Of a stretch of 64,000 nt of DNA, positions 31,001 to 37,000 are shown one piece after another. The DNA is from Escherichia coli (lineage in GTDB: Bacteria; Pseudomonadota; Gammaproteobacteria; Enterobacterales; Enterobacteriaceae). Numbering within the stretch: the stretch's first letter is position 1; every line of letters starts with the position of its first letter. The stretch is taken from NCBI RefSeq assembly GCF_030013595.1, contig NZ_CP122768.1. The stretch is one strand, 5' to 3'. The position numbers were made by a program.

Positions 31001-34000
31001 ATACGTCGGGGCTAAATCGCGCCAGCGCTGGCTGTTTTACGCGTATGACAGGCTCCGGAAGACGGTTGTTGCGCACGTATTCGGTGAACGCACTATGGCG
31101 ACGCTGGGGCGTCTTATGAGCCTGCTGTCACCCTTTGACGTGGTGATATGGATGACGGATGGCTGGCCGCTGTATGAATCACGCCTGAAGGGAAAGCTGC
31201 ACGTTATCAGCAAGCGTTACACTCAGCGCATTGAGCGACATAACCTGAATCTGAGACTACATCTGGCAAGGCTGGGCAGGAAGTCACTGTCGTTCTCAAA
31301 ATCGGTGGAGCTGCATGACAAGGTCATCGGGCATTATCTGAACATAAAACACTATCAGTAAGTTGGAGTCATTACCACTATTTTAATGGATTGTTAATCT
31401 TTGCATATTCAAACGGGCTGATACATTGTTCTCTGTTCGCATCCAGAAAATCTGCCCACCACTGTAGCATAAGTCGACGTTCTTCCAGATGTTCGGCTTT
31501 ATGGATATACGCAGCACGTACACCATTACGCTCCTGATGGCTCATCTGACGTTCAGCCGCTTTATCTCGTGCTGTTCTGGTCTCAATACTTCCATGCCGT
31601 TGCAATTACCTCTTAAACCATTCCTTACCATTTTCATGTCTTCGATAAGAAATCTTCATCATGCATGATCGATTTTGTCGATCGATTCGATCGAATTTTC
31701 TCTTTTTACCCTGTCTTTTGCATGGTTTTAAAATAAGCAACCTTCTTTATCGTGTGGGTAAGAACCAACGGAGATGATTGAAATGAAAAAGGTTATTGCT
31801 GTTTCAGCGCTTGCTATGGCGGGCGTATTTTCAGCCCAGGCTCTGGCTGATGAGAACAAAACTGGCTTTTATGTGACTGGTAAAGCCGGTGCTTCAGTTG
31901 TGGCTCAGACTGACCAGCGCTTCCGTCAGGACTTGGGGGAGGATGTTTATAAGTATAAGGGCGGCGATAAGAACGATACTGTATTTGGTGCAGGCCTTGC
32001 GGTGGGCTATGATTTTTATCAACATTACAATGTTCCTGTGCGCACGGAAGTGGAATTCTATGGCCGCGGAGCTGCGGACTCCCATTATACACTGGATACA
32101 TGGCATTCTCCGATGGGGAATGGTGGTCGGGAAGACACACAGAACAGGCTCAGTGTGAATACCCTGATGGTGAACACGTATTATGATTTCAGAAACAGCA
32201 GTGCATTCACTCCATGGGTATCTGTTGGCCTAGGTTATGCACGAGTACATCATAAGGCGACATATACTGATACCTCCTGGAATGAATCTGGCGAGATAAG
32301 TGATATTTCTGAGTTACATTACTCGGGATATGATAACAATTTCGCATGGAGCATTGGGGCCGGTGTTCGCTATGACGTAACCCCGGATATCGCTCTTGAC
32401 CTCAGCTATCGCTATCTGGATGCTGGTAAATCCTCCCTGTCTTACAAGGATGCAGAAGAGGATAAATATAAATCAGAAGTTGACGTTAAAAGTCACGACA
32501 TCATGTTTGGTGTGACTTATAACTTCTGACGACACTGCTCCTGAGCGATAATTACACATATTCAGTAATTAAGATATTTATATATCTTCTGCAACTAAAC
32601 AGAAATACCCTGCAGTAATATATCGCAGGGTCATTTGTTTCACAGGAGATTTCTGGTTTTTATTATGTTATTCTCTTTATAATAATATTACCGATATATT
32701 CCGATGAATATCAGAAAACTGTTTTGTCCGGGCAACACACCCCAGATTTTATTGTTTTTATTCTTTTTTATTGTTTCTGTAATAACCACAATTGCATGCG
32801 GATACACTGAGAAGAATGCCACAGGAAATGTGCTGCTTCTGTTTCTCCTTCTTCTCCTTGCACACAGAAATACCCTCACATCCATTACAGCGCTGTTATT
32901 TCTGTTCTGTTGTGCACTGTATGCGCCTGCCGGTATGACGTACGGTAAAATCAACAACAGTTTTATTGTCGCGTTGTTGCAGACCACAACTGATGAGGCA
33001 GCGGAGTTTACCGGGATGATTCCTGTTTATCATTTTCTGGTCAGTGCCGCGATTCTGGTATTCATGGTGATTTTCTGGCGGACACATCACCGTGGTCACC
33101 GTAACTGGCTGGCACTGCTGCTGTTCGTATTATGCTCAGTAAACAGCTGGCCGTTGCGGATGGTTAAAGGAACTGTTGTGGGGACAACTGACACATTGCG
33201 TGAAATGCAGCATTATAAACAACTGAGTCAGCACGGGGCTGACAACTGGAAAATCCTGCCGGGAACACCGTTATATGACACGATTGTGATTGTCACTGGT
33301 GAGAGTGTGCGCAGGGATTATATGTCGGTATATGGCTATCCCGTGCCAACCACGCCGTGGCTGAATACAGCTCCCGGTTTATTTATTGACGGCTATACAT
33401 CGGCAGCAGCCAGTACCGTACCTTCCCTGAGCCGGACACTGATTTATGACTATGAGCAGAACCCTGATTCCGGCAACAACGTGGTGGCGCTGGCAGCAAA
33501 AGCAGGATACAGCACATGGTGGATATCCAATCAGGGAAAACTGGGAGAGCATGACACACGCATCTCTGTTATTGCTTCTGATGCGGAGCATACCGTTTTC
33601 CTCAAGAAAGGCAGCTTCGCTTCCCGTAAAACGGATGACATGTTGTTGTTACAGGAAACAGAACGTGCGCTGGCGGATAAATCCTCTCCGAAGGTGATTT
33701 TCCTGCACATGATTGGCTCTCATCCGAATCCGTGTGACCGACTTAACTCCTGGCCGAATTATTACCTGGAGCAGTATCCCCGAAAGATTGCCTGTTACCT
33801 CGCCAGCATCAGTAAACTGGATAACTTTCTCGGTCAGCTTGATGGTATCCTTCGCCGGCATTCCCGTCATTTCGTCATGCTTTACTTTTCTGACCATGGG
33901 CTGTCGGTCAGCGACAGTGCTAATCCTGTTCATCATGATGGTCATGTGCAGGGAGGCTACAGCGTTCCCCTGATTATTACCGCCAGTGACATCACGTCTC

Positions 34001-37000
34001 ATCAGTCCGTCAGCAGAAAAATCAGTGCCCGTCATTTCGCAGGTATTTTTCAGTGGCTGACCGGCATTCGTACTGAAAATATACCGCCATTCAATCCGCT
34101 GACAGACGAAGATAATGAACTCATTATGGTTTTTAACGGAGACAAGAATGTACCGACAGACAGTCTTGAGTCACAACCTCTGATTCTTCCGGGCAAGGGA
34201 AAATAAGAGTAATGTTCATCACCAGGTTATGTACGATGAGTTTTCCACTGTTTATAGCAATTATCTTGCTAATAACCAGACAGGAGTAACCAGACCAACC
34301 GAAAACACCGGGGAGGTGATTACCCGCTGGCAGAGGAAATCCGGTTTTTTTTGATGTCAGCCATAACGTGTTTGACAATAAAGCATTATGAAAGGGTGTT
34401 AATGAGTCCATGGGATAATTCATAAAAATAATTTACTGTGTTGTCCTTTTCAAAAGAAATATTCAGAAGATAACCCCTGGCTGACAACCAGGGAAAGGGG
34501 ACATTAACAGTGTTATTATTGGTGGATAAATTATTACTTGTGTGCAGGATACACTAATGCGATATCTACTGATACTGTATGCCAGAATGTTTCCTGCCTG
34601 CTGCTGAAAACGGCAATATCCAGGGCCAGACATATTCACCATTCATATTTCTGCATTTCTGTACAATTTTCTCAGAAAGCGTCTCATCAATTCTTTCACG
34701 CAACTTCTCCTGCTGTCTTAAAATACTTTCGCATATTTCGAAATCATCTTCCTGCATCAGCATTTCGGCGCATTTAATGATTTCTGCCCGTTCATGCAGC
34801 ACAGAGGAATGGTTATAGAGCCAGTTTACAAACAGCAATGCTTCCGGATATTGTCCCCATAATGGTGAGTATGTTGCATAATAATCTTCGGCAGTATCCG
34901 GCCCGGCAGAATAGTTATGCCATACAGCAAGAGGAAATGGATGCAGATTTCCGCACAGCATTTCCGCGATGTAAGTATTTGCCGCAAATCCGCGACGAAA
35001 TGCAGTTGCAGCTTTTACCTGTTCCCCATTAAGAAAATGCAGAAGACCAAGTTCATACCAGTAAGGTGAAAATTCATCAGCATGTTTTTTCAGTACACTG
35101 AAGGCTCGCTCATGATCACCTGTTCGTAACAGTTCTGAACCCAACAACCAGCGGGCACCCTGATTATCTTCAGGATTGTATGCCAGTATTTTATCAGTAA
35201 GCATAACCGCATCCTGATGACGCTGTAAGTGCACATTTGCGAGAATTGCTGCATAAAGCGCGCGCAGATAAGGCCGGTTTTCGGGATGCATCCAGATGAT
35301 TTCACCACTGAAACTTTCCGGGATGAGACGATTACCGGCCGCCAGTCCTTTAAGCGCGGCGTTCAGAGCCTTACGCGGGGCATTCTGCTCCAGAAATGCA
35401 TATGCCAGATGAGCGTGTATATCAATAAAGTCAGGCTCCCGTTGAGCAAGGTGTCTGAGTTTGTTGATGTAACTCGTCTCGCTGATTTCATCAGTGTCGT
35501 ATGCATCAAGCACTTCTTCAAACTCCCCCAGTAATGGGCCAAACCAGGTATCCGGAAATACGAAACGCCCCTGGTTATCGTTCACTTCAAAGCGTAATCT
35601 GTCGTTCATTTTCTGAGCCTGTAAAACGGATGGGGACATAATCTGAAAAGCATAAAAGTCGTGATGTTGTGTATCAAGTCCTGTTTTTGTCCGGGATGAA
35701 TGTTGTTTACAATATCATCGACAGTGATTTTACATGAGAATGAAAATTTATCTTTATCTGCATTCCGGTGTATTGTGAGTTGTCAGCTGAAACAGCATAT
35801 TAATCGATTTTTTTTGTGATGGCGCTGAAATAACGACAGGATGATGATTGAAACTCCAGGTATCAAAATTGTTAGCGGTCCATAACGGTGTGATGTTTTG
35901 AGATTGTTTACAGATGCAATATTAAATATTTTGTCAAAAAACAAAAAATATCTAAAAATAAAGCATAAAAACAAAATTCCTCCGGACCTGGAGGCCGGAG
36001 GAGAATTTGTGGATTGAGAGAAAATATCAGGACAAGTGCTCTTAACCCTGACTCTCTTGCTTAGAAAGCGAATCAATATAATCTGCGTACCACTGCATCA
36101 TTTCACGGCGACCATCGAGATACTGGGCATGATTATAGGTACCCCTGATGGCGTTTTTATCCACATGAGCTAACTGCATTTCAATCCAGGCAGAATTAAA
36201 GCCCTGTTCGTGCAGAATGGTACTCATGGTGTGTCTGAAACCGTGCCCTGTGAGTCTTCCCTTATATCCCAGTAATTCAATGACTTGGTTAATGCTTTCC
36301 TTACTAATTGGCTTGCGAGGATCGTTCCTACCGATAAAGACCAGAGGATGATGTTTTGTGATGGGTTCAAGTTGCTTAAATAGGGCAATGACCTGCTCAG
36401 AGAGCGGCACAATATGAGGTCGCTTCATCTTCATTACTTCTGCCGGAATCTCCCATAATTTTGTCTCAAAATCGATATCCTCCCAGCGTGCGAAACGTAA
36501 TTCTTGTGTTCGTACACCAGTTAACATAATGATCTGAGTAGCTGTCTTAGTGATGATACTTCCGGTATAACCCGCCAGATCGTTGAGGAAGTGGGGAAGT
36601 TCATTAGCAGTAAGAAAGGGTAAATGTACTTTTTTCGGTGTAGCTAAAGCACAGGCAAGATCGGGAGCAGGGTTGTAGTCTGCCCGGCCAGTAACAATTG
36701 CATAGCGGAACACTTCACCACAGCGCTGGCGGACTTTGCGCATTTTCTCCAGAGCTCCACGTTTTTCCATTTTACGTAGTGCTTCCAGTAACTCCATTGG
36801 TTTGATTTCGGCGATAGGGCGTTTGCCAATGTAGGGAAAAATGTCTTTTTCAAAGGTATCAATGATTTCATCACGATAGCGTAATGACCACCGATCGGCT
36901 TTTGACTGATGCCATTCGCGAGCAATGGCCTCGAACGTATTTTTCAAACTCATTTGTTGCGCGATTTTTTCTTCTTTTTTTACCACCCCTGGATCGCCTC

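Follow-up and report, generated by a model that had tools for sequence, protein, structure and literature searches.

The phosphoethanolamine (PEtN) transferases EptA, MCR-1, and EptC share an established family mechanism that has been characterised structurally and biochemically. EptA/PmrC and MCR-1 to MCR-13 are lipid A PEtN transferases linked to polymyxin resistance, and EptC/CptA transfers PEtN to heptose I of the lipopolysaccharide (LPS) core. Another Escherichia coli enzyme of this kind, OpgE (YbiP), decorates osmoregulated periplasmic glucans (OPGs) with PEtN (PMC3818809), and its Haemophilus ducreyi homologues PtdA and PtdB change the surface charge and defensin resistance, leaving lipid A unmodified (PMC4406763). 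In this study, we analyzed a 64,000-nucleotide stretch of E. coli DNA (contig NZ_CP122768.1, hereafter the window), which carries a predicted PEtN transferase gene at positions 32704-34206 (+). On balance, the analysis favors the view that this gene encodes a functional inner-membrane PEtN transferase of an OpgE/YbiP-like branch, the acceptor of which would most likely be a glycan sugar in the periplasm or at the cell surface.

OpgE is the closest characterised relative of the window enzyme and resembles it in size, architecture, and clade, and both genes adjoin a gene for a small beta-barrel outer-membrane protein (OMP). However, opgE belongs to the core genome and is presumably present elsewhere in the same genome too, whereas the window gene is island-borne. 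PtdA and PtdB are described as OpgE-like enzymes of a pathogen with acceptors other than lipid A (PMC4406763); unlike E. coli, H. ducreyi lacks the OPG pathway. Lpt-O/Opt of Shigella flexneri is a plasmid-borne O-antigen PEtN transferase of ~500 residues that alters a surface glycan (PMC3458804); the window gene likewise lies on a mobile element, but the sequence similarity between the two is not significant. The E. coli K-12 gene yjgX, which island surveys list as 'YjgX' or 'putative opgE', also lies beside a P4-type integrase and a tRNA gene; the window copy differs in that it is intact and still has its tia partner.

Predicted architecture and active site

The YjgX-type (OpgE-like) transferase gene was delimited on the basis of the list of open reading frames (ORFs), Pfam matches, the RefSeq coding sequence (CDS), and the ratio of nonsynonymous to synonymous substitution rates (dN/dS). 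The ORF starts with ATG, encodes 500 amino acids, and contains zero internal stops. The corresponding 1,503-nt CDS is annotated in RefSeq in near-identical E. coli chromosomes under the name 'phosphoethanolamine transferase'. Two Pfam domains were identified in the product: EptA_B_N (PF08019) at residues 44-172, with a score of 24.8 bits against a gathering cut-off of 22.3, and Sulfatase (PF00884) at residues 193-446, with a score of 127.7 bits (E 7.2e-37; cut-off 25).

Hydropathy analysis revealed five hydrophobic segments (residues ~13-33, 43-57, 58-76, 106-124, and 136-154). The loop at residues 125-134 (WRTHHRGHRN), which is rich in Lys, Arg, and His, is consistent with a predicted N-in topology with the catalytic domain in the periplasm, and the conserved Cys pair (C344 and C364) is compatible with a periplasmic location of that domain. 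From hydropathy, the positive-inside rule, the AlphaFold2 model, and PF08019, we delimited an N-terminal membrane domain (residues 13-154; 32740-33165, +) comprising five predicted transmembrane (TM) helices and a putative periplasmic loop with the invariant residue E98. A predicted periplasmic catalytic domain of the sulfatase/alkaline-phosphatase fold (residues 193-446; 33280-34041, +) was delimited from PF00884 and Foldseek.

The AlphaFold2 model, which was built on an alignment of homologues (n = 48), had a mean predicted local distance difference test (pLDDT) score of 89.6 and a predicted template modelling (pTM) score of 0.81, and it placed the helices of the membrane domain at residues 12-31, 39-53, 57-80, 108-127, and 135-145. 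The best PDB matches of the model in Foldseek were all PEtN transferases, namely the periplasmic domain of EcEptC (E 3e-19), MCR-1 (9nww), and NmEptA (5fgn), the last two of which aligned with the model at full length. The best match among solved structures in a phmmer search was EcEptC/CptA (5zzu and 6a82; E 1e-17).

The same 48 homologues, with 27-92% identity to the transferase, were compared residue by residue. The residues E98, G199-E200-S201, T217, T238, S241, D312, H335, and G338-S339-H340 were invariant, as were Y365, D373, Y394, and S396-D397-H398-G399; H411, C344, and C364 were kept in at least 90% of the sequences. Alignments with EptA, EptB, EptC, and MCR-1 were then used to read the equivalent positions. 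Thr238 (codon 33415-33417, +), the predicted nucleophile, aligns with the Thr of the 'T(S/A)T' motif of EptA and MCR-1 (MCR-1 T285). Glu200 (codon 33301-33303, +), which lies in a GES.RRD motif and is a predicted zinc ligand, corresponds to MCR-1 E246. His335 and His340 (codons 33706-33723, +; HMIGSH) correspond to MCR-1 H390 and H395 with their five-residue spacing preserved, and Asp397 and His398 of the SDHG motif (codons 33892-33897, +), also predicted zinc ligands, correspond to D465 and H466. The equivalent of H411 is H478.

With the sulfatase fold, the EptA_B_N domain, the catalytic Thr, and the ligands all found, the predicted gene product is a membrane protein of the PEtN-transferase family. 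An original prediction, made from the sequence alone, had described a 500-residue protein with a polytopic N-terminal membrane region and a sulfatase-like C-terminal part, and the ORF, Pfam, and hydropathy results agree with that description. Its assignment to the PEtN-transferase family was confirmed by the two Pfam domains, the AlphaFold2 and Foldseek results, and the catalytic residues; it had also named missing catalytic residues as a finding that would speak against the gene, and the catalytic Thr and metal ligands were all present.

Alleles of the gene in islands at pheV and pheU share 91-94% protein identity with the window transferase. The dN/dS between alleles was 0.15-0.20, indicating that the gene is under purifying selection. 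Intact copies of 499-500 residues were present in E. coli, Salmonella, and Erwinia, and the main 90% cluster of the 499-residue proteins contained 8,941 member sequences.

Subfamily and probable acceptor

None of the curated NCBIfam models for EptA, EptB, CptA, and MCR was reached by the transferase. The two CptA models matched the catalytic domain only, with 108.3 bits (NF007933; cut-off 404) and 82.8 bits (NF012179; cut-off 900). The EptA models yielded 37.7 bits (cut-off 660) and 57.9 bits (cut-off 561), the EptB model 53 bits against 493, and the MCR-1 to MCR-13 models 10-33 bits against 1,075-1,250; the last result upholds the earlier impression that the protein is not of the MCR type. 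OpgE itself matched the same generic models below the cut-off and reached none of them, and the weak best match of the transferase to CptA is therefore uninformative. Because neither OpgE nor YhbX has a specific model, NCBIfam was unable to assign the subfamily.

We then compared the transferase with six K-12 paralogues (OpgE, YhbX, EptC, EptB, EptA, and BcsG) by using BLASTP. The match to OpgE/YbiP extended over residues 20-469, including the membrane domain, with 232 bits, 31% identity, and an E value of 2e-73. The matches to YhbX (105 bits), EptC (92 bits, 25% identity), EptB (57 bits), and EptA (45 bits, 22% identity) covered the catalytic domain only, and BcsG gave no match. In a neighbor-joining tree of 16 sequences (100 bootstraps, with support computed as unrooted splits), the split that separates the query clade, a clade of small-plasmid transferases, and OpgE from YhbX, EptA, EptB, and EptC was recovered in 100 of the 100 bootstraps. 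The query clade, which had the same support, comprised sequences from E. coli, Salmonella, Erwinia, the plasmid pO26-CRL-125, Pantoea, E. lignolyticus, and Aquitalea.

Judged by these comparisons, the transferase is not EptA, EptB, EptC, or MCR and belongs to an OpgE/YbiP-like clade. EptC/CptA has the same catalytic residues and is the best match of known structure, but the window enzyme is 77 residues shorter and lies on the opposite side of the 100/100 split. EptA/PmrC and the MCR enzymes likewise share the five TM helices, the alkaline-phosphatase fold, and the set of active-site residues, but they fall in another clade and none of their model cut-offs was reached. Shigella Lpt-O was considered as the closest relative and rejected, its best BLASTP E value being 0.6; in RefSeq, Lpt-O is assigned to the LTA-synthase branch.

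We infer the donor, the covalent mechanism, and the acceptor class of the transferase by homology to EptA, MCR-1, and EptC. By this analogy, the five N-terminal helices would anchor the enzyme in the inner membrane and leave the catalytic domain on the periplasmic side. A zinc ion would be bound through E200, D397, H398, and T238, with H335, H340, and H411 nearby, and would activate Thr238. The activated Thr238 would attack the phosphodiester of phosphatidylethanolamine to form a covalent PEtN-Thr intermediate with the release of diacylglycerol, and the PEtN would then be handed from Thr238 to a hydroxyl group of the acceptor. The candidate acceptors are the OPGs, as for OpgE, or a sugar of the LPS core, the O-antigen, or another polysaccharide. 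We ranked a glycan first, lipid A or heptose I second, and a protein, such as the neighboring adhesin, third. The glycan was ranked first because OpgE modifies periplasmic glucans and because PtdA and PtdB leave lipid A untouched; lipid A phosphates are a less likely acceptor than a glycan sugar.

The original prediction had placed its emphasis on lipid A, the LPS core, and polymyxin. If the gene encoded an acquired PEtN transferase for lipid A or the LPS inner core, of the EptA/MCR or EptC/CptA type, the cell surface would become less negatively charged and the susceptibility to polymyxin and cationic peptides would change. Such an enzyme would share its fold and catalytic residues with EptA, MCR-1, and EptC, as the window protein does, and would fit the observations that CptA gave the best curated NCBIfam match and EcEptC the best PDB sequence match. 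Nevertheless, all curated models were missed by a wide margin in a sub-threshold pattern that OpgE shows too, and the tree separated the query and OpgE from EptA, EptB, EptC, and YhbX. The H. ducreyi enzymes can be read both ways, in that PtdA and PtdB contribute to defensin resistance but do so without modification of lipid A (PMC4406763). Moreover, over-expression of opgE did not raise the colistin minimum inhibitory concentration in one study (PMC8004244), which gave this result as data not shown and in which eptA likewise had no effect. We consider a lipid A or inner-core enzyme unlikely. The failure of the curated models, the BLASTP ranking with OpgE closest, and the OpgE split lend no support to the lipid A, LPS core, and polymyxin emphasis; an influence on lipid A or on the susceptibility to polymyxin is possible but is the less probable case, and the evidence points away from a clinically important lipid A/MCR-type activity. 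Overall, the family and the horizontal acquisition proposed in the original prediction hold, whereas the proposed substrate class is probably wrong.

Identity with yjgX and distribution of the gene

We searched 5,426 complete E. coli genomes for the transferase gene by using megablast. At least 80% of the gene was present in 1,447 of these genomes, or approximately one quarter, and 2,731 contained at least a portion of it; ~1,280 genomes had partial matches only. The matches occurred at up to five places per genome and were nearly all chromosomal. The copy in K-12 and BL21 aligned with 91.7% nucleotide identity over positions 314-1487 of the gene; it is 5'-truncated and frameshifted, contains an internal stop, and adjoins IS2, an intB-type integrase, and tRNA-Leu, a setting that identifies it as the pseudogene yjgX (b4575; leuX-intB, KpLE2). 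By this alignment, the window gene is the intact form of E. coli K-12 yjgX.

Genes of this type have been described previously. A 1,503-bp CDS of the yjgX type was reported in GIselC, and such genes were reported in the selC, pheU, and pheV islands of Shiga toxin-producing E. coli (STEC) (PMC6174562). In a genome-wide association study of bacteraemia, a 'putative opgE' beside intA/intS in pap islands was associated with a urinary portal of entry and linked with pap (PMC8946752). The deletion of yjgX in K-12, where the allele is already a pseudogene, served as a negative control and showed no phenotype in an assay with the defensin HNP-1 (PMC4808223). Other papers that mention yjgX insert constructs at the K-12 locus, treated as neutral, for metabolic engineering. 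Literature searches for yjgX, alone or combined with tia, selC, and pheV, yielded nothing beyond surveys, such locus uses, and the negative-control deletion.

The transferase gene is already known as a common island gene that is annotated in thousands of genomes and noted in the literature, and the suggestion that it represents a noteworthy new acquisition was not borne out. As a sequence finding it is ordinary, with the gene, the family assignment, and the island association already on record. It is a PEtN transferase gene that sometimes occurs in several copies per genome and shares its islands with pap, tia/hek, and resistance transposons. If the enzyme modifies LPS or another surface structure, the susceptibility to serum, defensins, and polymyxin, phage adsorption, and adhesin function could change. 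A phage origin with lysogenic conversion was considered and rejected: among 50,697 phage records there was no full-length match, and only CptA-like matches at 26% identity were found. A PADLOC search for anti-phage defence systems yielded no match for the transferase, Tia, or the TPR protein encoded nearby, and no second copy of the transferase gene was found within the window.

Alternatively, the gene could be in decay and of no functional relevance, a remnant carried along passively at the integrase end of the islands. Decay is evident in K-12 and BL21 and in the frameshifted copy of strain 439, and the many genomes with partial matches only, the lack of a Shine-Dalgarno sequence, and the unaffected HNP-1 phenotype of the K-12 deletion (PMC4808223), albeit of a pseudogene allele, would suit such a remnant. 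However, the window copy is intact with a dN/dS of 0.15-0.20, the catalytic residues are invariant in relatives down to 27% identity, and the main cluster of 499-residue proteins holds thousands of sequences. These findings render a nonfunctional remnant very improbable.

Several points nevertheless weigh against a functional OpgE-like transferase acting on a glycan. OpgE proper (OpgE and P0064) falls outside the query clade, with support of 100/100 and 95/100. The gene does not behave as an opgE ortholog either: it represents a separate subfamily and lies in a selC island, not in the core position beside ompX. With an identity of only 31% and a separate clade, the acceptor of OpgE cannot be transferred to the window enzyme by homology. 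The truncated or frameshifted copies in K-12, BL21, and strain 439 indicate that the gene is dispensable in some lineages. Expression of the gene rests on predicted signals, and no recognisable Shine-Dalgarno sequence was found 5' of the ATG at 32690-32706 (…TATATTCCGATG). The literature search found no experiment on an intact yjgX-type allele or a member of the subfamily.

Islands, the adjoining adhesin gene, and other loci

The transferase gene lies in an island at selC. The tRNA-Sec gene (selC; 37530-37624, -), identified by ARAGORN, marks the integration site, with the core gene yicJ beyond it. An intact P4-type tyrosine integrase gene (36042-37232, -) with the Pfam domains Arm-DNA-bind_3, Phage_int_M, and Phage_integrase is followed by a gene for a TPR-repeat protein (34566-35639, -; Pfam TPR and ANAPC3), the transferase gene, and tia (31774-32529, +). 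The tia product, which is of the Tia/Hra/Hek family of eight-stranded outer-membrane adhesins/invasins (Pfam OMP_b-brl, E 9e-23), is named 'invasion outer membrane protein Tia' in RefSeq in identical genomes. The inner boundary of the conserved module is a C-terminal remnant of a P4-type integrase gene (31378-31605, -), identified from the ORF, RefSeq, and its likeness to the C-terminus of the intact integrase; RefSeq annotates a 'tyrosine-type recombinase/integrase, missing N-terminus' at the equivalent site in four loci (L001, L021, L022, and L023). These results substantiate the predicted position between a Tia-like gene and a TPR gene, as well as the horizontal acquisition. The GC content was 47.6% for the transferase gene, 44.1% for the island arm (31378-37300), and 51.4% for the core flank, so that the description of the DNA as AT-rich applies mildly and a stronger AT richness was not found.

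We inspected islands at selC (the window and E. coli 2009C-3133), pheV (AR_0150), and pheU (KGu016, RM14721, and 439). The selC side of 2009C-3133 has the same gene order as the window. The common order in the inspected islands was tRNA gene, intact P4-type integrase gene, an optional gene, transferase gene, OMP gene, integrase remnant, and variable cargo. The transferase gene reads toward the integrase, and an OMP gene of the Tia/Hra/Hek type lies directly 5' of it. The optional slot held the TPR gene in the window and an AAA pseudogene in strain 439 and was empty in the others; the TPR gene was rejected as a member of the module, being missing between the transferase and integrase genes in the pheV and pheU versions (loci L021 and L023). 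The integrase remnant had a length of 186-228 nt and suggests an old fusion of tandem islands that has since spread by recombination.

When all E. coli matches were sampled at even intervals, an OMP gene was also present in 19 of the 19 rows with a full-length transferase. The OMPs had diverged faster (65-89% amino acid identity) than the transferases. The pair recurred at a Salmonella homologue and a metagenomic homologue, both with 57% identity. Relatives with 58% (L026), 52% (on a plasmid), 49%, and 40% or lower identity had no OMP neighbor. A two-gene module consisting of a Tia/Hra-type OMP gene and a PEtN transferase gene is probably carried at the integrase-proximal end of tRNA islands. 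This near-constant pairing with Tia/Hra/Hek adhesin genes is the one feature that might repay attention. In the core genome of K-12, opgE adjoins ompX in convergent orientation (locus L010, 5451-7598), and OmpX is a small eight-stranded beta-barrel OMP.

The region between tia and the transferase gene contains putative expression signals. A GC-rich hairpin followed by a T-rich tract at 32607-32631 (+), 3' of tia, was identified from RNA folding (-14.6 kcal/mol, z = -5.0) and stem conservation, with the stem CCCTGCAG/CTGCAGGG preserved in four E. coli alleles. The hairpin probably terminates tia, and the transferase gene therefore probably has its own transcript. A sigma-70 promoter-like sequence (TTCACA-16-TATTAT; 32639-32666, +), which lies ~38 nt 5' of the ATG, is predicted from a consensus scan in which it matched at 10 of 12 positions, the best score in the region. 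The predicted transcription start lies near 32673. These signals suggest that the gene probably carries its own promoter and forms a transcription unit separate from tia. The other E. coli alleles of the gene likewise had no Shine-Dalgarno sequence. A five-codon mini-ORF with its ATG at 32665 was observed just 5' of the transferase gene.

Whether the pairing reflects a joint function was considered in this context. The transferase might act with its upstream neighbor by adding PEtN to the Tia/Hra/Hek adhesin or to LPS that the adhesin needs, and acceptor proteins have precedents in CjEptC, which acts on FlgG, and Neisseria PptA, which acts on pilin (cited in PMC4406763). The constancy of the pair in the 19 sampled copies and in each of the four islands examined at pheV, pheU, and selC, its recurrence in Salmonella and the metagenomic homologue, and the ompX-opgE adjacency in K-12 would all accord with such a function. 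However, block inheritance by physical linkage accounts for the pairing equally well. The conserved hairpin and the separate promoter-like site between the two genes, the relatives without an OMP neighbor, and the marginal similarity between Tia and OmpX (E ~2e-3) argue against a joint function, which we regard as quite improbable. With the same low probability, Tia/Hra/Hek and the YjgX-type transferase might form a functional unit in E. coli and Salmonella islands that decorates the adhesin or a strain-specific LPS or glycan site. If this were true, the decoration would tune heparan-sulfate binding, serum or peptide resistance, or the masking of phage receptors, and the ompX-opgE pair of the core genome would represent an earlier form of this arrangement. 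If, in addition, the adhesin itself were decorated, the enzyme would be a new protein-directed PEtN transferase in Enterobacteriaceae.

On the left of the module, the integrase remnant is abutted by IS1 (30664-31361), and we infer from this contact that the original cargo beside the module was replaced. A chromosomal resistance region (13000-31361) occupies this side and contains catA1 (29726-30385, -) and a Tn21-family transposase gene (26175-29081). Positions 13000-31376, or ~69% of the query 13000-37700, matched the chromosomal resistance region of the enteroaggregative E. coli strain 042 at 99.9% identity.

Related transferase genes were observed outside the islands. Small ColE1-like E. 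coli plasmids (pYLPM7d of 4,088 bp; L004, L005, and L012) carry an OpgE-like transferase of ~510 residues as essentially their sole cargo, and a tet(X4) IncHI1 plasmid has acquired one copy, flanked by IS1 and IS26. The possibility that these enzymes are Lpt-O-like was rejected: they are OpgE-like, with 31% identity to the query, and unrelated in sequence to Shigella Lpt-O despite the similar plasmid setting. A paralogue of 511 residues with 52% identity to the query was found on pO26-CRL-125 (L003, 7908-9443) and ~100 other large E. coli plasmids. Large conjugative plasmids of STEC and other E. coli commonly carry it, and it lies near an S6 autotransporter peptidase gene. At the Erwinia sp. 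homologue (49% identity), the next gene (L014, 2725-3411) had a weak match to glycerophosphodiester phosphodiesterase (GDPD), which acts in the metabolism of phospholipid head groups. Near the left end of the window, positions 149-8046 (-) contain a run of large co-directional ORFs of 280, 184, 1078, 428, and 659 amino acids.

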